Assembly (NCBI GenBank): GCA_964552045.1
Contig: CAZKFF010000001.1
Location: 64,120-128,119, forward strand
Reading direction: 5' to 3'
DNA: 64,000 nt
Source: an uncultured Candidatus Saccharibacteria bacterium
GTDB lineage: Bacteria; Patescibacteriota; Minisyncoccia; Phycocordibacterales; UBA918
This document shows positions 1,782 to 60,500 of the stretch, piece after piece (the stretch's first letter is position 1; each line of letters opens with the position of its first letter). The notes below the pieces were generated by a model. That model searched no databases. It saw only the letters and a list, made by a program, of their open reading frames with translations, and was not told the origin of the DNA. Both the position numbers and the translations under genes were made by a program.

Positions 1782-3737
1782 ATGACACAGCAACAAACAT
1801 ATCAGGGGCCGATCATGGTACGGGCAAAAGGTACCGGCTTTTTGACTGTAGAGGGACTGCCTGAGGACGTCCTCATTCCGCCCGAATCACTCTCCTTCGC
1901 TCTGGATGGAGACATTGTCGAGGTCGCATTGGTTAAAAAAGTGCCCGGCAAACGACAGGAAGGCCGTGTGGTCCGTGTGGTTGAGCCGGCACATGAAGAA
2001 CTCATTGGCACAGTAAAGAAAGAAAAGGATGCCCCTAGGTTCTATCTGTCCCCCGATAACTACCGTATCCATGTCAAACCGCAGCTGCGCGAGGCAAGCA
2101 GTAACGACGAAGGCATGAAGGTGGCGGCCAAGATAATCAAATGGACCGATCCGCTGAAGGATCCCATCGCTGAGATAACTGAGACGCTTGGAAAAGCGGG
2201 TGACCATGAAACAGAAATGCAGGCCATCATCCGCTCAGGCGGATTTTCCGAGAGCTTCAATGAGGCTATACAACAGGCTGGACAGGAGCTCTATGCAAAA
2301 AAAGAAGAGATATTCAGGGAAGCTGTTGAAGCGAGCAAGGGACCACAGCCTTTTCGCCGCGATATGCGAGACCGGACAACAATGACCATTGATCCGGTGG
2401 ACGCAAAGGACTTCGACGATGCGCTCTCCTTCCATGTGCTTCAAAACGGGAATTACGAGGTGGGCATTCACATAGCCGATGTGTCGCATTATGTCCACGA
2501 GGGGGATGTCATCGACAAAGAAGCTCAGGAGCGCGGAACGTCGATTTATCTGGTAGACCGGGTCATCCCTATGCTTCCTGAGGTGCTGTCCAATGATCTC
2601 TGCTCACTGCGGCCCGATGAAGACCGCCTCGCATTCTCTGCAGTCTTTGAAATGGATGCAGACGCCCACATTGTCAGTGAATGGTACGGACAGACCATCA
2701 TCCATTCAAATAAACGGTTCAGCTATGAGGAAGCACAAGGGGTGCTCGATGCCCAGGATGGCCCCTTCCTTGCGGAGCTCTCTACCCTGATGGCCCTTGG
2801 GCGTATTCTGCGCAAAAGGCGCTACCAGGAAGGTGCTATAGCCTTTGATCAGCCGGAAGTAAAATTCAAGCTCGATGAGCACGGTAAACCGATCGCCGTT
2901 GTTGCAAAGGTGCGCACCGAAACCATGCTCATGATCGAAGATTTCATGCTGCTGTGCAATCAGCGTGTTTCAGAACATATCTATACGCTCTGTAAAGACA
3001 AGGGCCGCGATGCGGCATTCATTTACCGCATCCACGATGTACCGAACCCCGATAAGATCGAGGAGCTCTCGCTGTTCATCCATGCGCTCGGCTACGAATT
3101 CGAAACAAAACAAGGAGAGGTGCATGCAAAAGAGATCAACCGGCTTCTGAAGGACATCGAAGGTAAGCCTGAAGAGAATCTCATCAAGACAGCCACTATC
3201 CGCTCGATGGCAAAGGCTGTCTATTCAACGAAGAACATCGGACATTTTGGACTTGCATTCAAATACTATACCCACTTCACCTCTCCTATTCGCCGCTATC
3301 CCGACCTGATGGCACACCGGATGCTGCGGCGACACCTCGATGGATCGCAGATCGGCAAGCAGGAGATGCTCCGGTATGAAAAGCTCGCGATCAAGTCTTC
3401 AAAGCGGGAAATCGAGGCAGTGAAGGCAGAGCGCGATTCGATCAAGTTCAAGCAGGTTGAATACATGCTCGACAAGGTCGGACAGGAGTTCGACGGCGTA
3501 GTTACTGGCGTCACTGACTGGGGTATTTATGTCGAGGAAAAAGAATCCAAAGCAGAAGGTATGGTTCGCCTGGGTAGCCTCCGCAGCGACTATTTCGTCA
3601 TAGACCCGGGCAAATACCGCATCAAAGGAGAGAGGACGGGACAGACCTACTCACTCGGACAGGAAGTGCGCATCAAGCTGGTACGGGCAGACTTGGAAGA
3701 ACGACAGCTCGATTTCGAACTCATCGCTCGTGCTTGA
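1782..3737 (+). CDS. rnr: ribonuclease R (RNB family 3'-5' exoribonuclease)
   Basis: 651 aa. N-terminal cold-shock/OB region. RNB catalytic motif TMTIDPVDAKDFDDALS. C-terminal S1 domain. Ends at TGA 3735-3737. Confidence 0.85.
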   Translation: MTQQQTYQGPIMVRAKGTGFLTVEGLPEDVLIPPESLSFALDGDIVEVALVKKVPGKRQEGRVVRVVEPAHEELIGTVKKEKDAPRFYLSPDNYRIHVKPQLREASSNDEGMKVAAKIIKWTDPLKDPIAEITETLGKAGDHETEMQAIIRSGGFSESFNEAIQQAGQELYAKKEEIFREAVEASKGPQPFRRDMRDRTTMTIDPVDAKDFDDALSFHVLQNGNYEVGIHIADVSHYVHEGDVIDKEAQERGTSIYLVDRVIPMLPEVLSNDLCSLRPDEDRLAFSAVFEMDADAHIVSEWYGQTIIHSNKRFSYEEAQGVLDAQDGPFLAELSTLMALGRILRKRRYQEGAIAFDQPEVKFKLDEHGKPIAVVAKVRTETMLMIEDFMLLCNQRVSEHIYTLCKDKGRDAAFIYRIHDVPNPDKIEELSLFIHALGYEFETKQGEVHAKEINRLLKDIEGKPEENLIKTATIRSMAKAVYSTKNIGHFGLAFKYYTHFTSPIRRYPDLMAHRMLRRHLDGSQIGKQEMLRYEKLAIKSSKREIEAVKAERDSIKFKQVEYMLDKVGQEFDGVVTGVTDWGIYVEEKESKAEGMVRLGSLRSDYFVIDPGKYRIKGERTGQTYSLGQEVRIKLVRADLEERQLDFELIARA

Positions 3738-4051: not shown

Positions 4052-4300
4052 ATGCTCATCGACACTGTTTGCCCGGGTGCGAGCGATGCCGAAATGGACT
4101 TCACCGTCCACTTCGTCACCCATGGGAAATTCAAACTCGGGGAGTTTCTTGAGCTGGTGAACGAACGGTATCCGCTGATCGTCACCGAAAAAAGCAGGAG
4201 CGGAGTGACCACGGTCGCTATCCGCATGCGGCATTCGCACCTGCGCCTGCTCATTGCGATACTGCCCAAGTACGTGGGCGTCTCGTATGAACCTGCGTGA
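4052..4300 (+). CDS. small hypothetical protein (82 aa)
   Basis: GAGGGAG RBS-like sequence about 9 nt before the ATG. A perfect terminator hairpin follows directly after the stop. No recognisable domain. Confidence 0.4.
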   Translation: MLIDTVCPGASDAEMDFTVHFVTHGKFKLGEFLELVNERYPLIVTEKSRSGVTTVAIRMRHSHLRLLIAILPKYVGVSYEPA

Positions 4301-4335
4301 GCCTGCAAAACATCCGTATGTTTTGCAGGCTCTTC
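4301..4335. terminator. bidirectional intrinsic terminator hairpin
   Basis: gcctgcaaaaca-tccgta-tgttttgcaggc gives a perfect 12-bp stem, followed by tcttctttattt. Lies between the converging small ORF (+) and smc (-). Confidence 0.65.
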
Positions 4336-8098: not shown

Positions 8099-8821
8099 TT
8101 ACCAGCCTTTCTGCTCGATCGCTTTCAGCGCTGCTTCCTGTTCAGCCTCCTGTTTCGCCCGTCCCTTCCCTTCGCCTACCTTTTCTTTCCCGAGAAAAAC
8201 GCCAACAGTGAATACGCGGTCATGGTCTGGTCCTTCCTGGCTGAGCGTAGCATAGGTCGGCGTCAGGTTTGTGTGTTCCTGCGCCAGCTCCTGAAACCTG
8301 CTTTTTGGATCTTGCCACAGGCGCTTCTCCACTATCTCATCAGTTTTGCTGAACAACTGATCAGCGATGAATTTCTGGGCGATGCCGTACCCCTGATCCA
8401 CGTACAAAGCTCCAATGAATGCTTCGAATGCATTTGCCAGAATATACTGCCGTGCTCTTCCAACATCCTTTGATTCGCCTTTGGACATCAGGAGATAATC
8501 ATTGACGCCGAGCTTCGTCGAGGCATTGGAAAGCGAGACCGTATTGACAAGCGCCGACCTGATGGCGGTAAGCTCGCCTTCCGGCTTATCTGGATACTTG
8601 CGGAACAGGAAATCCGTCACCACAAGCTCCAACACTGCATCCCCAAGGAATTCGAGCCGTTCGTTGTGGTCTTGCTTAGCATCGCGGTGCTCATTGAGAT
8701 ACGAACGGTGTGTTATGGCGGTCAACAGGTGCATTTTGTCATTGAACACAAAACCGAGCACGCGTTCAAGTGCGAGCAGGTCAGCTTCAATGTTCCGTTC
8801 ATCGCTTTCTTTTTGAGCCAT
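8099..8821 (-). CDS. rnc: ribonuclease III
   Basis: RNase III signature ERLEFLGDAVLELVVTDFLF. C-terminal dsRBD with a KAKQEAEQEAALKAIE-like tail. Confidence 0.9.
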   Translation of the reverse strand: MAQKESDERNIEADLLALERVLGFVFNDKMHLLTAITHRSYLNEHRDAKQDHNERLEFLGDAVLELVVTDFLFRKYPDKPEGELTAIRSALVNTVSLSNASTKLGVNDYLLMSKGESKDVGRARQYILANAFEAFIGALYVDQGYGIAQKFIADQLFSKTDEIVEKRLWQDPKSRFQELAQEHTNLTPTYATLSQEGPDHDRVFTVGVFLGKEKVGEGKGRAKQEAEQEAALKAIEQKGW

Positions 8822-8862: not shown

Positions 8863-9768
8863 CTACTTCCTGCTATTGTTTGCAACAAGCATCGTCACCG
8901 CCTTGGTCACAATGGGCAGAATGTCCTCATAGAAATTGAGATCGAGTATCTCGGCAACCTTGAACCATTTCGCGTCATCAAGGCCACCTTTATTCTCCAA
9001 AGTAAGCTCAGTATATCCGCTTCGGGCGAGGAAATACGTGACCTGCTTCCGCACTTTGCCGAGTTCTGGGTGCGATGCCACGTATTCATTCTTGCCAAGT
9101 TCACCTTCGAGGATAACATCGACGCCGATCTCTTCTTTGATCTCACGCATGGCGCCGGCCTCGACTGTTTCACCCTCCTCGATCTTCCCCTTTGAGAGAG
9201 TCCAGTGTCCGAAGATATCGTGAACCAGAGCCAGATAGATGTCACCATCAGACTCCGAATACACCACAGCACCCGACAGACGTTGTATCGGCATCTTTTC
9301 AAAAGGAATATCCTTCCGCGGCCGTTTGCCCGTCTCATCCTTCCCCGGCTCGCCTATCTCCTTATACACTGCACCGAGCACGCCGTTGACGAACCGGCTG
9401 CTGTTCTCGCCGCCGAACTGTTTTGCAAGTTCTATTGCTTCGTTGATGGCGACCTTCGCAGGCACCTCTTTCCGGTCAGCAAAAAGAAGCTCGTAGAGTC
9501 CCAAGCGCAATATATTTCTATCTACCGGTGAAATACGGTCAATGGGCCACTCGGGAGCAGCCTTTTCGATCACCTGGTCGAGTTCCGGCTGCTTGCCAAG
9601 TACGCCGTCAAGAAGCTTCTCAATAAACGGTGCGTCGGTCTTGTTCGGGGCAAACTCGGATATGTTGCGTTCCAAAACGTCTGCTACGCCCTTCTTTTCA
9701 ATATCATTTAAATCCCACTCAAAAAGTGTCTGAAGAACGATAGACCTGCTTAAATGTCGATTTGCCAT
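8863..9768 (-). CDS. nusB: NusB antitermination factor fused to a C-terminal NUDIX hydrolase domain
   Basis: N-terminal about 140 aa are NusB-like (ends ...RFVNGVLGAVYKE). The C-terminal half carries the Nudix box GKIEEGETVEAGAMREIKEEIGV. Confidence 0.8.
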   Translation of the reverse strand: MANRHLSRSIVLQTLFEWDLNDIEKKGVADVLERNISEFAPNKTDAPFIEKLLDGVLGKQPELDQVIEKAAPEWPIDRISPVDRNILRLGLYELLFADRKEVPAKVAINEAIELAKQFGGENSSRFVNGVLGAVYKEIGEPGKDETGKRPRKDIPFEKMPIQRLSGAVVYSESDGDIYLALVHDIFGHWTLSKGKIEEGETVEAGAMREIKEEIGVDVILEGELGKNEYVASHPELGKVRKQVTYFLARSGYTELTLENKGGLDDAKWFKVAEILDLNFYEDILPIVTKAVTMLVANNSRK

Positions 9769-16879: not shown

Positions 16880-17050
16880 TGGTGGCTACCAACCGCCAGT
16901 GCGCATGCACGTGTTATCTGATCTGGAACAGCAAAGTGCCATGCAGTATACCTGCATGGAAGCCCGGTGGAACCGCGGTACTCACGAAAGTGAAGATCGT
17001 CCGAGCGAACACACGAACTATCGTGTAGTCGCTTGGGCGATTTATTTTTA
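16880..17050 (+). promoter_or_regulatory. candidate thrS leader with T-box-like motif
   Basis: GGTGGAACCGCGG at 16967-16979 is one mismatch from the T-box core GGUGGUACCGCGG. An upstream stem contains an ACC (Thr) triplet in gctACCAacc. A weak hairpin tcgcttgggcga plus TTTATTTTT sits at 17029-17049. Weak, unconfirmed. Confidence 0.25.
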
Positions 17051-17068
17051 TTACTTAATGCAATACAC

Positions 17069-18817
17069 ATGTCAGAACAACTTCAAAACAAACGCCATAC
17101 GCTCGCGCACCTGCTGGCTGCAGCGGTTGTAGAGCAGTATCCGCATGCAAAACTGACTCTTGGTCCGGCGATCGATACCGGCTTCTATTACGACATTGAT
17201 TTTTCGGGTGGCCCCGCCCTCACCGACGATGGTCTCAAGGAGATTGAGAAGCGTATGAAGAAGCTCCTCAACTCATGGACGGAATTCACCCATAGAGAAG
17301 TGGCAAAAGAAGAGGCCACAGCTCTTTTTGCAGGGAATCCGTATAAGATTGAACTCATCGAAGAGATCGCGCAGAAAGGCGAAACGATCACGTTGTACAC
17401 CTGCGGAGGCTTCACCGACCTGTGCCGCGGAGGGCACAGCCAGCACCCGAACAAGGATATACACGCTGATGCGTTCACACTCGACAAAGTGGCGGGAGCG
17501 TACTGGCGGGGCGACGAGAAGAATCCGATGCTCACCCGCGTGTACGGGCTCGCATTCGATACGGCAGCAGACCTCCAGGCGTACCAGACACAGTTAGAGG
17601 AAGCAAAGAAACGCGACCACCGCAAGCTCGGCAAGGAACTCGACCTGTTCACCTTCTCTGAGCTTGTCGGCTCTGGTCTGCCGCTGTGGACGCCTAAAGG
17701 CACAGTTGTGCGTCATGAGCTCGATACCTACATCTGGCAGCTGCGGAGCAAGCACGGATATCAGCGGGTCACTATCCCCCATATCACAAAAAAAGACCTC
17801 TACCAGACATCAGGACACTGGGAGAAATTCGCCGATGAACTCTTCCGCATCACCACGCGCGAGGGCAAGGAGTATGCTTTAAAGCCGATGAACTGCCCGC
17901 ACCATACGCAGATCTTCAACCGCACGCCGCACAGCTACCGTGACATGCCGCAGCGCTATGCGGAAACCACTATGGTGTACCGCGACGAACAGTCAGGCGA
18001 GCTCGGCGGCCTTACCCGCGTTCTGTCCATTACGCAGGACGATAGCCACGTCTTCTGCCGGCATACTCAGGTGCGCGAGGAATTCTTCCGTATCTGGGAT
18101 ATCATCGATACTTTCTACGGGACATTCGGATTCAAACTCCGCGTCCGCCTGTCCTTCCACGAACCGACGGAAATGGAAAAGTATCTCGGCACCAAGGAGA
18201 TATGGGACAATGCAGAAAATGCGCTCCGTGAAATCGCACAGGAGCGAAAGGCCGATTATTTCGAAGCGCAGGGAGAAGCAGCTATGTATGGACCCAAGCT
18301 CGATTTCATGGCACAAGATTCCATCGGCCGTGAACACCAGGTTGCGACCATACAGCTTGATATGAACTTGCCTGAGCGCTTCGACCTTTCCTGCATCAAT
18401 GAAGCAGGGCAGAAGGAACGCATCGTCATGATCCACTGCGCCATCATGGGATCGATCGAACGCTTCAGCGCGGTGCTGATCGAACACTTGGGCGGCAATT
18501 TCCCCTTGTGGCTTTCTCCAGTACAGATCGCAGTCATCCCTGTTGCCGACACGCATAGAGCATATGCGCAACAGGTGTACGATAGCCTGAGGGCAGTCGG
18601 CATTCGTGCGACCTTTGATGATTCCAATGAGTCCATGGGAAAGAAGATCCGCAATGCCAAGAAAGAGCGCCTTCCCTACTTCATCGTTATCGGCGACAAG
18701 GAGGTTGCAGCAAAAAACGTCACTCTGGAGTCGCGTAACGGAATCTCAGAACAGGTAGAACTCGGAGTGCTTGGCAACCGCCTCCTTGCAGAAATGAGCG
18801 AAAAGCTTCTTTCATAG
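17069..18817 (+). CDS. thrS: threonyl-tRNA synthetase (no N-terminal TGS domain)
   Basis: Editing domain start HTLAHLLAAAVVEQYPHAKLTLGPAIDTGFYYDIDF. Class II core and anticodon-binding domain. ATG at 17069. Confidence 0.9.
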   Translation: MSEQLQNKRHTLAHLLAAAVVEQYPHAKLTLGPAIDTGFYYDIDFSGGPALTDDGLKEIEKRMKKLLNSWTEFTHREVAKEEATALFAGNPYKIELIEEIAQKGETITLYTCGGFTDLCRGGHSQHPNKDIHADAFTLDKVAGAYWRGDEKNPMLTRVYGLAFDTAADLQAYQTQLEEAKKRDHRKLGKELDLFTFSELVGSGLPLWTPKGTVVRHELDTYIWQLRSKHGYQRVTIPHITKKDLYQTSGHWEKFADELFRITTREGKEYALKPMNCPHHTQIFNRTPHSYRDMPQRYAETTMVYRDEQSGELGGLTRVLSITQDDSHVFCRHTQVREEFFRIWDIIDTFYGTFGFKLRVRLSFHEPTEMEKYLGTKEIWDNAENALREIAQERKADYFEAQGEAAMYGPKLDFMAQDSIGREHQVATIQLDMNLPERFDLSCINEAGQKERIVMIHCAIMGSIERFSAVLIEHLGGNFPLWLSPVQIAVIPVADTHRAYAQQVYDSLRAVGIRATFDDSNESMGKKIRNAKKERLPYFIVIGDKEVAAKNVTLESRNGISEQVELGVLGNRLLAEMSEKLLS

Positions 18818-31833: not shown

Positions 31834-33404
31834 ACGTTGCTTTTACGCGTCTTCGGCGTTACCCAGAAGCCCATGTATTTGCCGAGCATCAGGCGCGTCT
31901 GCGCATCAAGTCCGGGAATGGCGCTGAAGACGATCATGGTCGCCGGGACAAGTACCCACTGTACCGCAAGGACAATGTAACGCAAGCGGCTTTTATCTTT
32001 CGGCCGCGGCGGCAGCATTGTGAGCGAAATAATGGATGATACCACCAGACCGAACATGGCAAGAATGAGAAGGTCGCGGACCATGATCGGCAGATTATAG
32101 GAAAGCACCGTCTGATGGAACTCCTGGGTTCCGAGAAAGATTGGCGCCCAGCCGAGAAGGAAGAGCATGATGGGGTTGGTCACTAAAGACCAATAACCCT
32201 CCGCCTGCTGCAGACCGACAGTGATTCGTTTCCTGAGGGATATGTTCTTGTTCTTCGTGAAATGATAGATGATATAGGCAAAATTCTCTACGCCGTATGT
32301 CCAGCGGCGATGCTGCCTGTAAATATTCTTGATGGTGCCCCACAAGGTCGGCGCTGCATTGGCATCCATAGAGACAGGGTACGAAAGCGGTACCACGTCA
32401 TATTCTCCGTCGTTTGCCATAAGGAGATTCCAAAAGATGCGGGAATCCTCGTTGACCATATTCACCTGCCAGTACCCCACCTCATAGAGCGCCTGGAATG
32501 AAAGCGAATGGGAGGAGAATGTCGCCATGCGTTCCGGCCGCTCCTGCTGTACCATTTCCCAGAATGTCGATGACATAGCAACCACCCGGGCGATCGCAGG
32601 AGCTTCCCAAATATTGTTATTGAAGATAGGTACCGGCTGGAATGAGGTCTTCAGCGGACGCTCTGCAGTCATGAAATGCCAAATGAGGCAATTGAAGTAA
32701 TCCCTATACAGGACGGTATCAATATCGAAGATCGACACCAGTACATGGTTGTACCGTATGCCATGCGGGTCAAGAATTTTGATGCGCGCCTCTTCCGCCG
32801 CATAGGACGCGTTCGAACCTTTTCCGGCCATTTCTCCGGGCACATCTTTCGGGTGCGTGGTCACCAAGAACGAACCGAAAGTGCTCCCCCACTTCTCTTG
32901 CATTGCGCGGGCAACCTGCTGTGCCCCCTCTCCCGCGCGCTCCTCCGCAGCGAGCACGACAATAAGGCTCTTCTTGTCATACTGCACCTGTGCGAGCGAC
33001 TCGATGGTCGCATTGACGATATCCTCCGGCTCTTCATAAAAAGGCAGGATCACCATCTGATAGAGGTGGCCGTATTCAAAGCGCTCGATCATCTGCAGCC
33101 AGTTGAGCGAAAGATGGTACCGGAGGCGCTTCCAGTTGTATCGGAGATGATATGACAGGAACGCGGTCTTCAAGACCCAGTAGATGGCGAAACCGATGAT
33201 GAAATACGCTGCGGCGAACGGCGCATAGTTAGACATGAGAATGACCCCGATGAGCGTTGTCCAGGACGCAAAACCAGGCACTATCTCAAGGAAGCGGTAA
33301 AAACGACGGTCTTCCCCTACCAGTTCAGGAGCACGCCCTACTTTGAAGTCAGAACGCCGGGCATACGGAAGCAGATGCGATGAATCCTCCATAAATAATA
33401 TCAA
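31830..33404 (-). CDS. integral-membrane family-2-like glycosyltransferase (processive synthase-like)
   Basis: 524 aa. Multiple TM segments flank a cytoplasmic catalytic-like domain (VLAAEERAGEG...SIFDIDTV...), which resembles membrane GT2 polysaccharide synthases. Domain call is by resemblance only. Confidence 0.5.
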   Translation of the reverse strand: MILFMEDSSHLLPYARRSDFKVGRAPELVGEDRRFYRFLEIVPGFASWTTLIGVILMSNYAPFAAAYFIIGFAIYWVLKTAFLSYHLRYNWKRLRYHLSLNWLQMIERFEYGHLYQMVILPFYEEPEDIVNATIESLAQVQYDKKSLIVVLAAEERAGEGAQQVARAMQEKWGSTFGSFLVTTHPKDVPGEMAGKGSNASYAAEEARIKILDPHGIRYNHVLVSIFDIDTVLYRDYFNCLIWHFMTAERPLKTSFQPVPIFNNNIWEAPAIARVVAMSSTFWEMVQQERPERMATFSSHSLSFQALYEVGYWQVNMVNEDSRIFWNLLMANDGEYDVVPLSYPVSMDANAAPTLWGTIKNIYRQHRRWTYGVENFAYIIYHFTKNKNISLRKRITVGLQQAEGYWSLVTNPIMLFLLGWAPIFLGTQEFHQTVLSYNLPIMVRDLLILAMFGLVVSSIISLTMLPPRPKDKSRLRYIVLAVQWVLVPATMIVFSAIPGLDAQTRLMLGKYMGFWVTPKTRKSNV

Positions 33405-33611
33405 GTGAGTATAACGCCCTTTTTAGCATAAAAAAAGTGGCTTTTTTACAGGAATGTGTGGTTGTGCGCGTCCTAAAACTGACTTTCCTGCGTGCGGTTT
33501 CCCCTGATTATTATGGCGGCAATACGCAAATTCCTCAGAGGCACCTGTATCACCGATACAGTTCTCGTTCACTCGGTTATTTCTGCAGGCGAGCTTGCAG
33601 TATGACACTCA

Positions 33612-33667
33612 TTCGCTCGACTGTCAGACGTCAACTGACGACCCACGGTTTACTTGGACAAGCGAGC
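33612..33667 (-). pseudogene. tRNA-derived fragment (3'-half-like copy of the tRNA-Thr gene)
   Basis: ctgtcagacGTCaactgacgacccacggtttac matches the tRNA T-arm and anticodon 3' side at 33812-33844 at 30 of 33 positions (3 mismatches). It lacks a D-arm and a 5' anticodon stem. Confidence 0.35.
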
Positions 33668-33767
33668 AGACATGGAAAAGTTTACTTTTACATGTACTGC
33701 GAGTGCCGTCCAAGAAAAGATATTTACAAAATCGTTCGGAACTGTCCCGCACTTCCTTACCGCAACC

Positions 33768-33790
33768 AACTGCGCTCAGGTGGCTTTGCA
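33768..33790 (-). pseudogene. tRNA-derived fragment (5'-half-like copy: acceptor + D-arm)
   Basis: ccaactgcgctcaggtggct resembles ccaactgagctaaggtggct, the 5' end of the tRNA-Thr. It is followed by a degenerate anticodon-loop-like ACGATTTTGTAAAT. Confidence 0.3.
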
Positions 33791-33805
33791 ACATAAAAGC
33801 CTCAG

Positions 33806-33878
33806 AGCCACCTGTCAGACTTGAACTGACGACCCACGGTTTACAAAACCGTTGCTCTACCAACTGAGCTAAGGTGGC
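33806..33878 (-). tRNA. tRNA-Thr (anticodon UGU)
   Basis: Cloverleaf readable on the minus strand: acceptor GCCACCT/AGGTGGC, D-arm GCTC-AGTTGGT-AGAGC, anticodon arm ACGGT-TTTGTAA-ACCGT, T-arm GTCAG-TTCAAGT-CTGAC, discriminator U. CCA is not encoded. An 18-bp extended inverted repeat flanks the gene. Confidence 0.8.
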
Positions 33879-33951
33879 TCTGAGGCTTTTATACTCGCTC
33901 AGAAATTGAGTCGCACCATTATTGCAACTTTTTTTAAAATTGCAACGTGCG

Positions 33952-34362
33952 CTAATGTGATAACCGCTCCTTTCTCTCCTCCTGGCTCAACGCAACTTCT
34001 TCCTTATGTTCTGCAATAGCGTCAAGGTGATTCCTCGTTTTCGACTCGCGTATATCTTTGGCCACTTTCCTGTTCTTTCGGACGAGCTCTTCGACCCTGC
34101 TTTCAAGCGCCCGCAGTGCTGTAAGCAGACGCTTGAGGATCGTGTGCGCTCCGTAATGGAGCAGAAGACGCATGAATCCATGAGTGAAGAAAGAGGTCGC
34201 TTTCTGTATGTGCTGCTGTATGAACGCAAGCGCCCTGTCAAAGGATTCACGCACACGCGGAAGGAGGATCCTTCTGCCCTGTATATCCTCTACCACATAC
34301 AGCAGGGTCAGCAGCAACAGCACTGCAATACTTGTCCCCATGTATGCGAGCGCAGTTACCAT
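33952..34362 (-). CDS. small membrane-anchored hypothetical protein downstream of tsf
   Basis: N-terminal TM MVTALAYMGTSIAVLLLLTLLYVV. Overlaps the tsf stop. Confidence 0.4.
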   Translation of the reverse strand: MVTALAYMGTSIAVLLLLTLLYVVEDIQGRRILLPRVRESFDRALAFIQQHIQKATSFFTHGFMRLLLHYGAHTILKRLLTALRALESRVEELVRKNRKVAKDIRESKTRNHLDAIAEHKEEVALSQEERKERLSH

Positions 34363-51599: not shown

Positions 51600-54500
51600 C
51601 TATATTTCGCCGCCGCCGCCGCCACCGCCGCCGCCTGCCTGGGTATACGGCTTTACCTGAATGGCATCGACCTTGACCGTATTCTGATCCGGCTGGTCAA
51701 TGACACGGACGAAGAAGTTGCCGCCTGAGAGGTCACTTGGACTCCAGCTGCGGCCCCAGGTATCGGACGCACCGCCGAGCGTATAGACTGCGTCGCTTCC
51801 CGTGAGCACGGATGTTGCCTTTGTCGCCGTCACACTTTCGTCGCCATTCCAGGAAAGTGCCACCTGAATCGTTCCCGCCCCGGTTGAACCGGACGCTTCA
51901 AGCTTCACTTCGATACCGGTCACCGTATTCCCTGCCGGCACATTGAAGCCGAAGACACTGTACGACTGACGAAGGTCCGCCGATGCAGCCGTTGCGTAGA
52001 CGTCGTCGGAGGTAAGCGCATTGCTGCCGTTTGTCCACTCATTGTAGAGTTCTCCGGTTGCGGTCGGCGCTTTGAAGCCGGGTTCGTTGCCAATCTGCTC
52101 TCCATTATCCTCTTCCCCTACTCCGCCGCCGCCGTTGTTGCCGCCGCCGCCGATGTCACCATCACCTTCTGGTGCATCGTCTCCCACTTCAGCGCTGAAG
52201 AGACTGCCGCCGCCCTTATTGCCGCCGCGGATATGCTGCACTGAGGTCACACCTCCGAGCGGGACAACAACTCCTTCAGTCGTCGCGCCCGTGCCGGTAA
52301 CACCGTTACGATTGAGGTCAATGGTCAGATACTCATTGGTATGTACGCCCGTGACATCTCCCGTAAGGACATAGTCTTTGGTCGTCGTTGCATCCCATGA
52401 TGTTGAGAATGTTATTGTCCCTGATTGTCCCGTGATGGCTAACACGCCAGTGCCGCCGATCTGGTTGTCAGAAGCGTCTGCCGTACCGTTGCTGTTATTG
52501 TCGCGGTAGAGCTTAAAGTCCCCAATATTACTGCTATCGATACGATGGATGCCGGAGAGTGTAAATACAGCTGACGTGATCGTTGCATTCTCTCCAACAG
52601 GTGCAAGATTAAAGGCAAACAATGGTTCGTCGCTCTTGTTCTGGTAGCTGAATGCATTGTCGATCTGACCAGCGGTGTGATCTGCAAGGTTTGCTGCACC
52701 ATAGATAGCCACAGTCTTATCATCATGAACGCCAGTAGCTGCCACAGGATCAAGTGTATAAGCGTTGATATCGTCACCCGTATAACCCATCACATAGAGC
52801 GTGGTACCGTCGTTGTTGAAGAGTGCCGCAGCAGGAGCAGATTCCTGTGCGGCGACCGAGAACGCGATCTCGTCGAAGGTCGCCGTTGAGATGTCGTACG
52901 GAGTGGAGAGCGTATAGGCATTGATGTCTTGTCCTGTTAAGCCCACAACATACAATACAGTACCGGTGTTGTTGAAGAATATATCAGAGGGGGCGTTTTC
53001 TTCTGAAAGGACCGAGAACGCGATCTCGTCGAAGGTCGCCGTTGAGATGTCGTACGGAGTGGAGAGCGTATAGGCATTGATCTCCCCACCAGATGCTTGC
53101 ACAACATACAGGACGGTACCGGTGTTGTTGAATTCCATATCATAGGGGAAGGATCCCTCTGCCGAAACCGAGAACGCGATCTCGTCGAAGGTCGCCGTTG
53201 AGATGTCATACGGAGTGGAGAGCGTATAGGTATTGATGTCGAGACCAGAAGTACCCATCACATAAAGAACGGTGCCGGTGTTATTGAAGAGCATTGAACG
53301 GGGGTTGATTTCCTGTGCGGCGACCGAGAGAGCGATCTCGTCGAAGGTGGCAGTTGAGATGTCATACGGAGTGGAGAGCGTATAGGCATTGATGTCATCA
53401 CCGGTAGAACCCATCACATAGAGCGTGGTACCGTTGTTGTTGAAGAGCATTGCACGAGGAGCGTCTTCTTGTGAAGAGACAGAAAGGGAGATTCCATTGA
53501 AGATGGCAGTTGAGACATCGTATGAACCTGACTCTTGATCAACAACAAACGACAGCGTCGATGTTGGCGCAGCAAGTGCGTTAAATTGTGTAAATGAAAG
53601 CCCCGAAATAGTGAGGGTATCCCCTCCTGAGAAGTCATTCGAGACGGGTACGACGAGTGTGGCACCGCTGTCCTCATACGAAACAGGATTAGAGACTTTG
53701 CCTGAGGCGGTTCCTCCAAAGACTGCAGTGGTATCGGTCGTATCCCACTTCATATTTGTCTTTGTAGTGTCAATGGTAATACGAAGGTCATTCGCTGCCG
53801 TAATCGTCGGGGTCTCGGCGTCGGTTATGGTAATGGCGGCAATAGACGTGGTCGCCTGGCCGTATCCAAAGATCTGGTTCGATGCTGAGGAAATCGTCCC
53901 CGCCCCGCCTCCACCTGCTGGCGCTGTGATGTCCCAGCAGTCGTTATTGCCGCTGTCGGTCGAGCTGGCTGCAGTGATGGTGCTTGCGCTGTCGCATGCG
54001 TTTGAGTCCATCACATCGACATACGTAACGGATATCTGGGTATCTGCATCGAGGCCCCACTGGGTTCCGTCCTGTGTTGAACGGAGTACGATCTCGTCAT
54101 TCTCTGCGCCGTCTATCTGTATAGAGGCGAAGGTTGAGGTCGCATCCGCAGGGAATTCCAGAGTAATACCGGGAGTGATCGCTACCAATTTTGCAGCCTC
54201 TACCGGATCAGTGAAGGTGGTGACCGGAACTCCGCCAGTATTGCCGGGCGAAGTCATCACGAGATCGGTACCAGATTGCGCTACCGCAACAAACGTACCG
54301 TTGCCGTAGGTCACTGACCGCCAAGAACTCGCTGCTCCTTCTTGTCGAGCAGTCCACGTGATTCCGTCAGGCGAGGTCATCACTTGATCAGTGCCACCGA
54401 GAGATACCGCAACAAACAGGCCGTTGCCGTAGGAAACGGAATGCCAGAAGGAAGCTTCTGTCGCCGAATGCGAGGTCCACGTGATGCCGTCCTCTGAGCT

Positions 54501-57500
54501 CATGACTCGGTTGGTGCCGGCTTGCGCGACGGCCACGAACGTGCCATTGCCATGCACCACGGAAATCCATGAACTTGCTTCAGCAGCACGTGCCGTCCAG
54601 GTGATGCCGTCAGGAGAGGTCATGACGCGGTTGGTGCCATCTTGAGAAACAGCGACAAATAAGCCATCGCCGTAGGTTACAGAAGTCCATGTGTTCGCCT
54701 CCGTTGCGGATCGTGCCGTCCACGTAATGCCGTCAGGAGAGGTCATGACGCGGTTGGTGCCGTCGGAAGAAACAGCGACAAACAGGTCGTCGCCGTAGGT
54801 GACTGATCGCCACTGGTTCGCTTCTGCGGCTGTGCGTACAGTCCAGGTAATGCCGTCGGGCGAGGTCATGACGCGGTTGGTGCCATCTTGAGAAACAGCA
54901 ACAAATAAGCCATCGCCGTAGGTGACTGATCGCCACTGGTTCGCTGCTGCGGCTGTGCGTGCAGTCCAGGTAATGCCGTCGGGCGAGGTCATGACGCGGT
55001 TGGTGCCCGTGAGTGCTACCGCGACGAACTGGCCGTTGCCGTAGGTGACTGAGTGCCACTGGTTCGCTTCTGCGGCTGTGCGTACTGTCCATGTTTGTCC
55101 GCCTTCGACCACTGGCGTATCCACTGAAGCGACCTCAAGCGTACCGAAGCTGGAGCTGCCGGTCAGGTTCCCACTGAAGGTTTGTGTGCCTCCATGTATG
55201 GTCGTCGTACCGTTCCCCCAGTCTATGGTCCCATTGTTCTCATAATCACCCGCAATCGAGAACTGCGACGGTGCTGTTACATACGTGTCCTCTGTAATGC
55301 TCAAGTCACTGGTCGAAGCATTGTTGGCAAACACCACTTCGCCGAGGAGCTCCCCGTCTGCAGAAGTCATGACGCAGTTTGTGGTACAGGTCGCTCCTGC
55401 GCTTGTCTGCTGTGCAATCGCGACAAATTTATTTTCTCCGTAAACAATATCCCACCATTTATTGACATTTATCGATGCGCGAGGTGTCCAATTTGCTCCA
55501 TTGTCACTAGAGGTCATGATCTGGTTTGTGCCGTCAGGTGAGACCGCAACAAAGAGGCCGCCGCCGTACGTGACTGACTGCCAGCTGTTCGCTTCATATC
55601 CGCTCGATACAATACTCCATGTGATGCCATCCTCTGAGGTCATGACATTATCATAGGCAACCGCGACAAACGTGCCACCGCCGTATCCCAAGCCGTACCA
55701 TGTACTACCCGGCACATTGCGCGATGTCCACGTGATGCCGTCGGGCGAGGTCATGACCAGATCGGTCCCCGTCGATGCGATCGCCACGTAGAGGCCTTCT
55801 CCGTAGACCACTCTCTCCCATTTGTTTGCCGCCGCAGCAGTACGTGCAGTCCACGTGATGCCGTCGGGCGAGGTCATGACGCAGCTGGTGCTGCAGGTGG
55901 CCGTACCATCGATATTGTTGTGGGCAATCGCAACAAACTGCCCTCCTCCATACGTTACCGAGTACCATTCGTTCTGCGCAGCTGCTGACCTGTTGGTCCA
56001 CGTGACTCCGTCAGGTGAGGTCATCACCTGATTGGTGCCGTTGCCAGCAACCGCAACAAACAGGCCTTCGCCATAGGTCAGGCTATTCCACGAGTTCGCC
56101 TGCGATGCTGAACGAGAGGTCCACGTGATGCCGTCAGGCGAGGTCATGACGCGGTTGGTGCCCGTGTATGCAAGCGCAACAAATGTGCCGTTGCCGTAGG
56201 TTATCGCAGACCAGGTACTGTTCTCCGATTGATTTTGTGCTGTCCAGTTCGCCCCGTCCGGTACGAACAGCTGCGGGGCATCAATGGTAATATCGTTGAA
56301 TGCCGAGCTTCCCGTCATGTTGCCCGAGAGAGTTGTCGTACCCGTGTAGGTTGTGGTTTCTGAGTAATCAAGACTGTACGGGAAAATATCCGAGGCAGAC
56401 TCTCCGTGGACATACATCTTCGAACCGTCGGGTTTGAACTCAAAACCATCAGGGAAGTCCTCCTGACTCGTAACCGAGATTGAAGTTCCGTCATATACTG
56501 CCGTGGTGACATCCCACGGGGTTGAAAGCGTGTATGGGGAGATATAGTCGTTGAGATAACCGCTGACGAACATCTTCGTTCCATCGTCGTTGAAGGCCAC
56601 ATCCTGGATATTCGTCTGCTGTGTATTGACCGAGAAGGACTTGCTGTCGTAGCTCGCACTTGAGATATCCCACGGGGTTGAAAGCGTATACGAATAGACC
56701 CGATTGTTTGCATCACCGCCGATGTACATGCGCGTGCCATCCTGCTTGAAGGTCATACCGAATGGTGTTGCATCCTGCGTCGTTACTGAAAAACTGACAC
56801 TGTCGTAGCTTGCTGTGGTGACATCCCATGCAGAAGACAGTGTGTACTGGAAGACGCGGTCATTGCCGGAACCGAGCGCAAACATCTTCGTACCGTCGCT
56901 TGAGAACGAGACTTTTTCGACAAAGCTATCCTGGGATGCAGTTGAGAATTCATTGACGTAACTCGCTGTGGTGACATCCCATGCAGAAGACAGCGAGTAT
57001 TCGGCAACGGCATCGCTGTTGTAGCCGTTGATGAAGAATTTCGTGCCGTCAGGCTTGAATGCGAGGCTTGTCACCTGCGACTCCTGCGAGGTCACCGAGT
57101 ACGCCACACCATCATAGGTTGCGGTGGTGATGTCCCAACTGGCAATCGCTGTTGTTGACGCTGTGGTGGTCCCGACAATATAGGTGAGGCCGCTTCCGCT
57201 GTCGAAGGTGCCGTTATTGGTGTAGTCGCCGGTTATGGTGAGCACCTCCGGCGCTTCCACAGTCGCGCCCGAAGCGATCGTAAAGTCGCTCGTCGAGGCA
57301 TTATCAGAGAACGTCTTAGTGCCATTTCCGGAGAAAGAGACTGCATTGAATGCGCTCGATCCGGTCATGCCGCCCGAAAACGCTTGTATGCCTGAACCGT
57401 CGAAATTGACGATACCGTTATGATGCGCGAAGACGCCGGTGTTCGCATAGTCGCCAGAGATCGTCAATTCAGCCGGAGCGATAAGCGTCGTCTGTCCGCC

Positions 57501-60500
57501 GATGGTGAGATCAGTTGTGGATGCTGTGGAACTAAGACTGATCGTATTGCCGTATGTACCGTCGCTGGAGTAGAGAACCTGATTGGTCCCATCCGTACTT
57601 GCCGACACAAACTTCCCCTCACCATAGGTCATCGAAATGAAGAAGTTCGTATTGGGAGTCGTGACCTCAGTCCACGTGATGCCGTCAGGCGAGATCATAA
57701 GGTATGTACTGCCCGTGAGCGGGTCTCCCAGTGCGGCAAAATATCCACCGCCGTACGCAAGTCCATACCAATCGGAATTGCCCGGAGTTATTCTCGTAGT
57801 CCACGTGATGCCGTCCTCTGAGGACATAGCGGTATCGGTCTCACTGACCGCAACGAATCTCCCTTCTCCATACACAACCCGCTGCCATCCGCTCGCGCTA
57901 GCCGCACTGCGGCTGGTCCAGGTAATGCCATCGGGTGAGGTCATCACGCGGTCAGAACCGGTACTCGCGACCGCCACGAAGAGGCCGTTGCCATAGGTCA
58001 CGTTTTTCCATTGATTTGCCTCAGGCGCGACCACCCCCGTCCAAATGATGCCATCTTCAGAGACCATCACGCGATATCCGCCGCCAGTAGTGTTACAGCT
58101 TGATGCATTCACGCCGCAGGCCACTGCTACGAAGAGGCCATTGCCGTAGGTGACGCTACTCCAGTTGTTCATCGCAGCTGCGGTACGGCTGGTCCAGGTA
58201 ATGCCGTCAGGCGAGGTCATGACGCGATTCGATCCAGTACTGGCGACTGCCACAAACAATCCGTCTCCATAGGTAACCCACTGCCATGAGTCTCCAACCG
58301 GCTGGGTTCGCGTAGTCCAGGTGACCCCGTCTGGAGATGACATGACATCTCCGTCCCATGAGACCGCTACGAAGGTTCCCCCACCGTACGTGATTGCGCT
58401 CCATTGTGATGATTTTGATGCGCTTCCCTCTTGCCATACGGCTGCACTATTAAAGAATTCACCCGATGAGGTGGCGGTCACATTGCCGAGTGTAGATGAG
58501 CCAGTGAGTGTTCCTGACACCGTACTGCTGCCCGTGATCACCAGTAGGCCATCATTTGAAAAGGTTCCGTTATTGATGAGGTTGCCGTTGACGGTGAGCG
58601 TTCCCGACGGGGCATTCAGTGCAGCCGTACCGCCGATGGTGAGATCGGAGGTCTCCGCGTCGTCCGCGAAGGTGATGTCGCTGTCCTCTGCACTGATTGT
58701 GAACACATTGAAGGCGTTCTCCCCCGTCATATTCCCTGCAAAGACCTTATCAGTGTCCGGCGTTCCGGTGCCTTCTGTTCCTGTCGTGTACTGGTACACC
58801 GCATCATCATCAATATCGAGTATGAACATCTTTACGCCGTCATCGCTGAACTTCACCTGCAATCCTCCACTGACCTGTGCTATTGGCGAGAAGCTGTTCG
58901 TGTAGCTTGCAGTACTGATATCAAAAGGCGTAGAAAGTGTATATCCGTACACATCCTGCCACCCGAAGAAAAAGAGTTTGGTTCCGTCAGTACTGAAATG
59001 TATACCTGAAACACTCGTATCCTGTGCCGAGAAAGAGAAACTCTCTTCATATACGGCAGTTGATACATCCCATGCCGGAGAAAGGGTGTATGCATGGATA
59101 CTGTCGCTGTTATCGCCAGCGATATACAAGCGTGTTCCGTCTGCGTTGAATGCAAGACCAAAAGGTTTTGTTTCTTCTGTGAAGAAGAACGCGTCTACAT
59201 AGGTTGCAGTAGTGATGTCGTACGGGGTGGAGAGCGACAGTTCTGCGACCGCATCACTTGAGTCCCCAGTGAAATACACTTTTGTACCGTCGTCCTTTAC
59301 GTATACCGCATTCGGAAAATCATCAAGTCCACCCACATTGAATGCGCCCTGGTATGAAGCGGTGCTGATATCCCACGGGGTACCCAGCGTGTACCAGCGG
59401 ATATTGTCAGCATCATAGCCAAGCACATAAAGATGTTCCCCATCACGGCTAAAATCCATTCCGTAGGCATTGGTTTCAGTAACGCCGAGCGAGACCGCGT
59501 CATACGAAGCGCTTGAGAGATCGTAGCCAACTGTATTGTTCTCCACCGCGACAGTCACTGTTCCATCGCCAGCGGTAAATACGCCGTCATTGGTGTAGTC
59601 TCCGTTGATCGTCAATACGGACGGAGCTACGACAGTCGAGGTTGCGGTGATAGAAAGATCGTTCACTTCCGCATCTGTTGAAAATGTCTGTGTCGTCAGG
59701 GCGTACGAACCGCTCTCTGAGGTCATGACTCGATCAGTACCATCAAGCGAGACCGCGACGAACTTCCCTTCCGCAAAGGTGACCGAACTCAGTGAATTTG
59801 CAACAGGCGTAGTTGCAAGCGACCACGTGATGCCGTCGGGTGAGGTCATGATACGGTCGTTTGTCGTATGGAAGCTTGAGACCGCTACATAGACCCCACC
59901 TCCGTATGCCACATCAACAACATTGCTGATGTCCGGCTTCGTGCGCGAGGTCCAGGTGGTGCCGTCTTGCGAGGTCATGATGTCTCCCCCCCATGAAGTG
60001 GCCACGAAGAGGCCGTTGCCGTAGCCGAGTCCGACCCATTGTTGGGCCGACGCAGCGGTGCGATTCGTCCAGGTGGTGCCGTCAGGTGAGGTCATAACGC
60101 GGTTCGTACCATCCTGAGCGACGGCGACGAAGATGTTGTTCCCATATGCCACACTATTCCATGTGTTCGCCTGGGAAGCGCTCTTCATGCTCCAGGTGAT
60201 GCCGTCGGGCGAGGTCATGACACGATCGGTCCCCGAGCCCGCGACTGCGACGAAGGTGCCGTTGCCATAGGCGACGGATTTCCACGCGCTCAGGCTGACG
60301 CTCGTCGTATCCCATGTAATGCCGTCGCTCGAATATGCCGCCCGATCGGTTCCGTCGCTCGAGACGGCGACAAACGTATCATTTCCGAATGTGACGGATT
60401 CCCACGTGTTGTCAGGGAGTGAATCGTCGTGCTCTACCCAATTCTCGCCATCAGTTGAAGTCATAACGCCCGTGCCGCTTCCGACTGTCACAAACAGTCC

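Follow-up and report, generated by a model that had tools for sequence, protein, structure and literature searches.

The 64-kb window analyzed here (64,000 nucleotides of contig CAZKFF010000001.1) is a chromosome segment of the candidate phyla radiation (CPR)/Patescibacteria, Paceibacteria/Kaiserbacteria-like, and all best relatives of its tsf gene were in Patescibacteria metagenome-assembled genomes (MAGs). This report concerns its 547-nt intergenic region at 33405–33951, which contains the sole tRNA of the window as determined using ARAGORN and Rfam, a tRNA-Thr(UGU), and an interrupted copy of that tRNA beside it. The gene order on the minus strand is prfA, rpsB, tsf, an unknown gene of 136 aa, the intergenic region, a family-2 glycosyltransferase gene (GT2), an unknown gene, pheS, pheT, and gyrB, with GT2 on one side of the tRNA-Thr region and the small tsf-linked gene on the other. 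A first-pass annotation had described separate tRNA fragments at this site and explained them either as scars of tRNA-targeted integrase events or as decayed tandem tRNA genes. The fragments were found to compose one copy, which belongs to a repeat family that accompanies tRNA-Thr in related bacteria. This copy probably, though far from certainly, arose without any integrase, when a recombination-prone tRNA cassette visited by an endonuclease underwent local duplication, gene conversion, and the repair of breaks. For comparison, 80 loci were retrieved via tsf and 80 via GT2; labels of the L001 style denote the retrieved loci, and L084 and L090 are IMG/VR contigs.

The intact tRNA-Thr and its interrupted copy

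The intact gene, referred to as copy A, and the features around it are as follows.

33918–33945 (−): promoter-like site of the tRNA-Thr unit (TTGCAA, 16 nt, AATAAT), from a consensus scan, 9/12 with TG
33879–33895 (−): 5′ leader arm of a helix, with 14 perfect pairs (33879–33892) and three more with G-U, from the inverted repeat, fold, and covariation
33806–33878 (−): copy A, functional tRNA-Thr(UGU) with no encoded CCA, from ARAGORN, Rfam RF00005, and synteny
33790–33805 (−): 3′ trailer arm of the helix, from the inverted repeat, minimum free energy (MFE) fold, and extension length

A clean tRNA-Thr had been reported at 33806–33878 (−), and both programs agreed. Copy A scored 71.2 bits against Rfam RF00005, for which the gathering score is 29, and ARAGORN called tRNA-Thr(tgt) at 33805–33878 (−). 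A syntenic tRNA-Thr(TGT) was found in approximately 120 related loci, and the order tsf, small gene, tRNA-Thr(TGT), and GT2 was kept among the relatives. Moreover, the motif TTGCAW-N17-TAATAAT..TGCGACT was kept upstream of the tRNA in relatives and traveled with the tRNA where the cassette was inverted. The tRNA-Thr(UGU) locus is a self-contained transcription unit with its own promoter.

The interrupted copy, referred to as copy B, lies downstream of copy A and is composed of the following parts.

33528–33784 (−): copy B, a degenerate repeat of the downstream ("D") type, derived from tRNA-Thr and split by three inserts, with four colinear matches to copy A
33760–33784 (−): piece 1, acceptor-5′-like strand and D-arm-like GCCACCTGAGCGCAGTTGGTTGCGG, 21/24 identical to copy A
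33734–33760 (−): HP1, a 27-nt hairpin, GTAAGGAAGT-GCGGGAC-AGTTCCGAAC, inserted at the D/anticodon junction and aligning to the HP1 columns of the covariance model R1 (described below)
33723–33736 (−): piece 2, 5′ strand of the anticodon stem and loop (AACGATTTTGTAAA), 13/14 identical to copy A
33654–33722 (−): insert I2, 69 nt, hairpin-forming, inside the anticodon loop, with a GTAAA duplication on both sides, read from the sequence
33621–33653 (−): piece 3, running from the anticodon 3′ strand through the variable loop to the T arm, with 31/33 identity to copy A
33549–33620 (−): insert I3, 72 nt, separating the T stem from the acceptor 3′ strand, with a flanking ACAG duplication, read from the sequence
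33528–33548 (−): piece 4, acceptor 3′ strand (AGGTGCC, giving C2.C71) and trailer copy CTCTGAGGAATTT, 18/21 identical to the 3′ end and trailer of copy A

All four pieces lie on the same strand as copy A and follow the 5′-to-3′ order of the tRNA, so that they are colinear and form one full-length interrupted copy. For the two long pieces, the expectation from shuffled sequences was approximately 0 (100 shuffles). The first-pass annotation had reported a 5′-half copy at 33768–33790, a 3′-half copy at 33612–33667 with 30/33 identity, and a direct repeat of the tRNA 3′ end at 33533–33548. The presence of each was borne out, while the position of the first was revised to 33765–33788, the position and identity of the second had to be revised to those listed, and the third was extended to include the trailer. 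Piece 2 and the colinear co-orientation of all pieces had been missed.

Piece 1 contains a compensatory change at pair 12-23 (T-A to G-C) and a G.G at 10-25, as read from the sequence. The T loop of piece 3 is TTGACGT, with the invariant C56 and A58 lost, and joining of the pieces leaves the mismatches C2.C71, G10.G25, and A30.C40. The fold of copy B was not tRNA-like (z = −2.0). Copy B gave no Rfam match even at E ≤ 10 and was not called as a tRNA by ARAGORN, including in intron mode. When the intron and relaxed modes were run over 33300–34100, only low-scoring artefacts were obtained, with a "tRNA-Arg(ccg)" at the 80% threshold. A second intact or intron-containing tRNA over the fragments, which the first-pass annotation had named as the finding that would make them functional rather than scars, did not appear in these modes. 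Judged from its sequence, copy B of the window is unable to act as a tRNA.

The two inserts differed in their relationships. I2 was homologous to the insert of copy B in L021 (44/61 identical, with 0/500 shuffles as good), and the two inserts lie on opposite sides of the ACCGT strand. No homologue of I3 was found in the window or in any retrieved locus. Repeated mobile elements were considered as the identity of I2 and I3 and rejected, both being single in the window.

The repeat family and the paired elements of the unit

To describe the family, the covariance model R1 was built from alignment A1 of 18 copies. The R1 search returned approximately 65 copies (43 upstream and 22 downstream of the tRNA) in approximately 50 of the approximately 120 related loci. 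All of these copies share the strand of the tRNA; the upstream copies end approximately 48 nt before it, and the downstream copies start approximately 21 nt after it. Members of the family have a D-arm-like segment, HP1 in place of nucleotides 25–29, and the 5′ part of the anticodon loop, and they are co-oriented with and adjacent to tRNA-Thr. The 5′ 68 nt of copy B (33717–33784, −) matched R1 with 38.2 bits and E = 7e-10 over the full model. Copy B starts 21 nt past the tRNA, like other downstream-type copies. Its 5′ part most resembles the upstream-type copies of L104, L013, and L007, and its HP1, which is degenerate with one G.G mismatch, is homologous to theirs (79–81% over 62–68 nt).

Two arrangements recur. 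The upstream type comprises a leader, tRNA positions 1–24, HP1, tRNA positions 26/30–36, the reverse complement of tRNA positions 18/24–36, a spacer of approximately 48 nt, and the intact tRNA, and this unit is often repeated two to three times. The downstream type comprises the intact tRNA, approximately 21 nt, a D-arm-like segment, HP1, tRNA positions 30–76, and a trailer, present in one to three tandem copies with a period of about 110–118 nt. In L111–113 and L137, the downstream copy is complete, with the acceptor stem and T arm kept and the anticodon arm replaced by another structure. L029 contains an inverted partial copy/HP1. The family spans a clade with 60–85% GT2 identity, and the outgroup is without repeats.

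The window and related loci (11 related loci in total) were compared with Rfam by gathering score and by E-value, and only tRNA was returned, with no known RNA family for copy B or the downstream elements. ARAGORN labels the complete copies as a 96–97-nt "tRNA-Pro(GGG)" in one to three tandem units (L111:1870–2201, L113:167–498, L112:2106–2201, and L137:130–226). The Rfam tRNA model rejects the L111 copies. The possibility that HP1 is a true GGG anticodon arm was rejected, since 32-38 and 33-37 covary as Watson–Crick pairs, giving a GGG triloop hairpin, and the D stem is not kept. The label is probably a recurrent mis-annotation in Patescibacteria MAGs. HP1 was also rejected as a dispersed miniature inverted-repeat transposable element because every occurrence, in the window as in all other loci, is next to tRNA-Thr.

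The hairpin HP1 looks selected. All 12 of its pairs vary on both sides, and 87% of cells were paired, compared with 29–52% when the partner was slid. Over 49 nearest-neighbor pairs, HP1 showed 58 compensated doubles, 14 wobble changes, 44 single changes, and 10 uncompensated doubles. In close pairs of loci, the core was kept with compensatory changes while the adjacent spacers were unalignable, and the type-ii hairpin subtype retained tandem G.A/A.G mismatches. Constraint at the RNA level is suggested but not proven.

Further hairpins and elements were also observed. The hairpin ttaaaACAGTCTGGGAGACTGTtttat in L084:10270–10430 and L090:9820–9980 is identical to HP1 of L002 and L022, with an integrase-sized open reading frame (ORF) and a tRNA adjoining. 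It lies within a segment of approximately 140 nt bounded by ACCTGCCATCT direct repeats, which could reflect chance or a mobile hairpin. A viral origin of the hairpin was considered and dropped after three IMG/VR pattern scans; one gave 11 mostly coding or chance matches, including the related pair L084/L090, and two were empty. Hairpin units of the form gaccgagtgaggccaNctgtatgc...gcatacagNtggc are repeated 3′ of the cassette in L003:5560–7000, L104:2330–2560, L131:1250–1330, and L138:420–470. A second conserved element, E2, is located 3′ of the tRNA-Thr terminator; it starts with CCTGGAGCCA, which is complementary to the 3′ end of the tRNA with CCA added, and continues with GGGTCGCRAGTACTTAGTAGAAT...TTAGTAACTYGTGAC. 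E2 is sometimes duplicated, inverts along with the cassette, and had no Rfam match. It was located as follows.

L094:745–905 (reverse strand): E2
L023:4020–4150 and 4185–4330: E2
L099:1560–1880: E2
L093, L095, L097, and L102: further loci with E2

The second paired element of the unit is the helix around copy A. The first-pass annotation had embedded the tRNA in an 18-bp perfect inverted repeat that extends the acceptor stem in the precursor. The repeat is indeed perfect, but it spans 21 bp (33793–33813/33872–33892), made of the 7-bp acceptor stem and 14 bp between the leader and the discriminator plus trailer. Allowing G-U, there are 17 extension pairs and 24 bp in total. The discriminator U73 (33806) is also paired, with A-1 as its partner, and the leader arm pairs with the trailer in the MFE fold of the region (z = −5.8).

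The lengthening of the acceptor stem in the precursor was backed by covariation in the relatives. Extension lengths were bimodal, with 0–1 bp in 98 of 121 loci and 8–17 bp in 21. Long extensions were linked to downstream-type copies, which were present in 12/21 of these loci compared with 6/100 of the others. Across 22 loci, the sequence of the extension varies yet stays paired, with double changes at 14 of the 17 pairs, and the tRNA's own stems behaved as expected in the same covariation test. The ratio of G-U to A-C in the extension was 21:3, which points to selection on the tRNA-sense transcript rather than on a DNA palindrome. These data indicate that the leader–trailer helix is selected at the RNA level. 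The length (at least approximately 20 bp) and the covariation are those of a leader–trailer processing helix for RNase III. The helix would most likely serve as a double-stranded entry site for RNase III, and it would most likely hold copy A in the right fold against the look-alike sequence downstream. In L021, L025, L029, and L030, which are relatives with downstream copies, a terminator hairpin read by eye follows copy B and not copy A. This position suggests that copies A and B may be co-transcribed. A paper on HARP-type processing (PMC12217051) has no bearing on a paired leader and trailer.

Cassette rearrangement and the HNH endonuclease

The cassette shows turnover at the DNA level in several respects. 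The tRNA-derived patches of the repeats are usually 100% identical to the local tRNA, though the tRNA stems vary among loci. This identity and the placement of I2 and its L021 homologue on opposite sides of the ACCGT strand fit repeated short-patch gene conversion from copy A. Array size differs between near-identical contigs, with one copy in L112 and three in L111/L113. On the GT2 tree, repeat type, cassette orientation, and anticodon-stem allele (ACGGT, ACTCA, ACGCA, GCGGC, and others) are interspersed. An in-place inversion of the cassette, with the neighboring genes keeping their orientation, was found in at least 10 lineages scattered over the relatives, and the inverted segment spans the promoter, repeats, tRNA, terminator, and a further downstream element. 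No inverted repeats were evident at the inversion breakpoints when L023 was compared with L094. The fold-back palindromes of the upstream copies are centered on tRNA positions 36–39, which would fit breaks in the anticodon loop. Runs of N (assembly gaps) fall exactly within the repeat arrays of L005, L010, and L029, a placement that hints at copy-number or orientation heterogeneity within populations.

In 12 or more relatives, a gene for a free-standing HNH endonuclease of 134 aa was located 56–380 nt from tRNA-Thr, on either strand. The copies were placed as follows.

L040:5189–5593 (+): HNH gene
L131:1418–1819 (−): HNH gene
L120:444–848 (+): HNH gene
nine other related loci: HNH gene

Three of the four HNH copies scanned exceeded the Pfam HNH (PF01844) cut-off. 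L130 contains two inverted HNH copies, and HNH remnants were found in L105 and L122. Presence or absence of the gene at the same slot, as in a homing locus, was observed in relatives: L127 and L018 are colinear at 83–86% identity except in the slot from the tRNA trailer to the GT2 promoter, which holds the HNH gene in one and the repeat array in the other. Phage homologues with 40–46% identity lay directly beside tRNA-Thr in all five unrelated phages checked, T5-like to jumbo (Klebsiella vB_Kpn_B01, Streptomyces Jada, Xanthomonas XbC2, Synechococcus DSL-LC03, and Enterococcus iF6). HP1 was considered as a hairpin at the ribosome site of the HNH gene and rejected, as these genes are preceded by promoters of their own, and the sequence upstream of them is unrelated.

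The endonuclease SegB of phage T4 belongs to the GIY-YIG family, not to HNH. SegB cleaves inside tRNA genes and spreads the tRNA region (PMC2330249), and it drives tandem amplification of a tRNA locus (PMC13096335). The HNH ORFs of phage T5 are situated in the phage tRNA cluster, as cited in PMC2330249. The tRNA-Thr-associated HNH homing endonuclease is a possible source of the DNA breaks in the cassette, a role that is proposed tentatively here from gene position and homology.

The other genes and features recorded in the window are as follows.

1782–3737 (+): gene for an RNase R/II-type exonuclease
8099–8821 (−): RNase III gene
8863–9768 (−): gene for a NusB-NUDIX fusion protein
17033–18817 (+): gene for threonyl-tRNA synthetase (ThrRS)
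51600–62690 (−): single ORF of 3696 aa, with fn3, PD40, and WxL-interacting-type surface proteins among its neighbors

PheS (241 aa) and PheT (645 aa) of the window are unusually short.

Origin of copy B and comparison with known systems

In the explanation that was judged probable, copy A is the working tRNA, and its leader would pair with the discriminator and trailer so that the acceptor stem grows to 21–24 bp. RNase III would enter at this helix, and maturation would continue with RNase P, trimming of the 3′ end, and the addition of CCA. Copy B is a degenerate member of the lineage-wide tRNA-Thr-derived repeat, in which a D-arm-like segment is followed by HP1 replacing 25–29, by the region of the anticodon loop, and by the 3′ part of the tRNA. 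These repeats may arise and persist by local tandem duplication, by fold-back or template-switch rearrangement, and by short-patch gene conversion from copy A, in a cassette that is often inverted, amplified, or swapped between lineages. The DNA breaks may come from the HNH endonuclease that occupies the same slot in relatives and lies beside tRNA-Thr in phages.

Several points weigh against this account. The window contains no HNH gene or remnant and does not itself have the character of a homing locus, the endonuclease link being drawn from relatives only. The distribution of the commonest anticodon-stem allele, ACGGT, which was found in 0/12 loci with HNH and in 41/110 without (p = 0.008), is indirect evidence for cleavage by the enzyme but carries no phylogenetic correction. 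Covariation of the clamp, as the leader–trailer helix is referred to here, was assessed in loci that had been picked for possessing the extension. Co-transcription of A and B, cleavage by RNase III, and the role of the clamp are all inferred. The ratio of G-U to A-C in HP1 was just 17:9, which bears on whether constraint acts at the RNA or the DNA level. Moreover, the strong compensation in HP1 and the constancy of its position speak against the repeat being mere debris, and the retention of the hairpin is left unexplained by duplication and repair.

In the main rival, the repeat family is a functional, selected RNA element of the tRNA-Thr unit, and copy B of the window is a diverged but still relevant member. 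Possible roles would be a regulator of processing or folding, a decoy for a nuclease directed at tRNA-Thr, or a cleavage-resistant repair template. The covariation and compensated changes of HP1, with a conserved core and unconserved flanks, speak for it, as do the constant strand and fixed spacing of the copies within the promoter-to-terminator unit. The kept type-ii G.A/A.G mismatches would not be maintained by a DNA palindrome, and the spread of the family across a clade with 60–85% GT2 identity, its absence from the outgroup, and the lack of an Rfam match are also in its favor. However, the window copy is among the weakest real R1 matches (38 bits compared with 60–89 in good members); its HP1 is mismatched, and its two inserts are private or semi-private. 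In many copies, the acceptor 5′ strand is missing (as in most downstream ones), the copy is truncated, or the inserts differ, and HP1 is inverted in L029. Copy number differs between near-identical strains, and many related loci are without the element. Overall, this rival is considered unlikely.

A broader proposal combines selection with the endonuclease and is offered as speculation that is doubtful but worth stating. Paceibacteria may have an undescribed selected tRNA-Thr-derived element, made of three hairpins (one D-arm-like, one GGG-tipped and covarying, and one anticodon-derived), which would be co-transcribed with tRNA-Thr(UGU) and engaged in an arms race with a phage-shared, tRNA-Thr-specific HNH homing endonuclease. 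The clamp would be the matching adaptation at the RNA level. The element might then act as an uncleavable neighboring template or a decoy, repairing or protecting the single essential tRNA-Thr gene.

In a further reading, which is distinctly improbable, tRNA-Thr was duplicated in tandem long ago through replication slippage or unequal crossing-over and the copies simply decayed neutrally, with no endonuclease and with nothing functional beyond copy A. The colinear pieces, stem mismatches, and lost invariant bases would all be expected under decay, the relatives show tandem arrays and copy-number variation, and the window bears no HNH trace. However, a neutral pseudogene would not retain a covarying hairpin at one position across a deep clade, nor would it stay 100% identical to the local tRNA in patches, and the many independent inversions and allele swaps require an active source of recombination. 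The earlier idea of decayed tandem tRNA genes is right in outline but understates the conserved repeat family and the selected clamp.

An integrase origin of copy B was not supported. As had been noted at first pass, the window contains no integrase, and the Pfam scan of 40 window ORFs found no integrase or recombinase. The additional DNA next to the tRNA in four relatives also yielded no integrase or recombinase (from Pfam in L024 and L028 and from ORF size in L003 and L036), and no full-length element was present at the tRNA-Thr site in approximately 150 loci. In an attachment (att) site, only the 3′ part would be duplicated, with foreign DNA between; in copy B, the 5′ acceptor, D-arm, and anticodon 5′ pieces are duplicated as well. 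The scar reading of the first-pass annotation also fits poorly with colinear pieces within 350 nt and with the tandem arrays of approximately 110–118 nt period in relatives. It would require an element or prophage that used tRNA-Thr as attB and, after deletion, left copy B as an attR-like remnant. Some relatives do resemble this: in many downstream copies, the tRNA-identical block begins near position 30 and reaches the 3′ end, as anticodon-loop att blocks typically do. L037, L038, L058, and L059 have simple partial copies of the 3′ part, and the two viral contigs combine an HP1-identical hairpin, a tRNA, and an ORF of integrase size. However, 5′ tRNA parts and leaders are duplicated, the arrays repeat whole units including the spacer, and two scans of viral contigs for family motifs were negative. 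Att-site scars are therefore regarded as very unlikely.

A working multi-intron or split tRNA gene with spliced pieces has virtually no chance and is effectively refuted for the window: its inserts at 25/26, in the anticodon loop near 37/38, and at 65/66 recall archaeal multi-intron positions, and ARAGORN calls the intact repeat in L111–113 and L137 "tRNA-Pro(GGG)", but the joined pieces carry the three mismatches and the defective T loop described above, ARAGORN in intron mode built no tRNA-Thr from them, Rfam found neither a second tRNA nor a group I intron (Intron_gpI), no bulge-helix-bulge (BHB) motif was seen by eye, and the supposed GGG anticodon loop covaries as a paired hairpin in copies that the Rfam tRNA model rejects.

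Partial tRNA copies beside tRNA genes are routinely taken for the footprints of integrases; in this case, they are part of a conserved repeat that derives from tRNA and contains a hairpin under structural constraint. The cassette of this repeat flips, amplifies, and swaps alleles among uncultured CPR bacteria, and in relatives it also houses a homing endonuclease otherwise seen beside phage tRNA-Thr. If the proposed account is true, an essential tRNA locus on the chromosomes of bacteria with reduced genomes is shaped by a selfish nuclease of the phage type, bacterial pre-tRNAs can bear an rRNA-style leader–trailer processing helix, and a candidate RNA motif absent from Rfam is gained. For annotators, it is of practical use that ARAGORN may call these repeats "tRNA-Pro(GGG)".

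Among known systems, the homing endonucleases of phage tRNA clusters (T4 SegB; T5 F-TflI/II/IV; PMC2330249, PMC13096335) are similar in that an HNH gene lies near tRNA-Thr in relatives with a patchy distribution. This locus also has partial tRNA units in tandem arrays, together with inversions and the swapping of alleles. Unlike the SegB and T5 systems, the window has no endonuclease gene, the locus is on a bacterial chromosome and not in a phage, and both cleavage and a target site are putative. The att fragments of Islander-type islands and prophages (PMC4383910, PMC9897764) share the partial copy near an intact tRNA and an identity block that often runs from the anticodon to the 3′ end. They differ in that the present locus has no integrase or island, its 5′ parts and leaders are duplicated, all parts lie within 350 nt, whole units repeat in tandem, and a conserved hairpin is contained inside the copy.

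The clamp resembles the leader–trailer helices of rRNA operons cut by RNase III (PMC10250234), as both are helices of at least 20 bp formed by the flanks of a stable RNA, with structure conserved over sequence and RNase III encoded. In contrast to the rRNA helices, it encloses a single tRNA through an extension of the acceptor stem, occurs in approximately one-sixth of the related loci, and would be cut only putatively. Archaeal multi-intron and split tRNA genes also have several interruptions, including at 25/26 and in the anticodon loop; here, however, the host is bacterial, no BHB was seen by eye, the exons give no valid tRNA, and an intact tRNA-Thr adjoins. Finally, the versions in L111–113 and L137 have another structure instead of the anticodon arm but retain the acceptor stem and the T arm, like the tRNA-like noncoding RNAs tmRNA, YrlA, and the t-elements of plant mitochondria. 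Unlike these, the repeats have no Rfam match, most copies are without an acceptor stem, and their sequence is derived from, and kept identical to, the neighboring tRNA-Thr.

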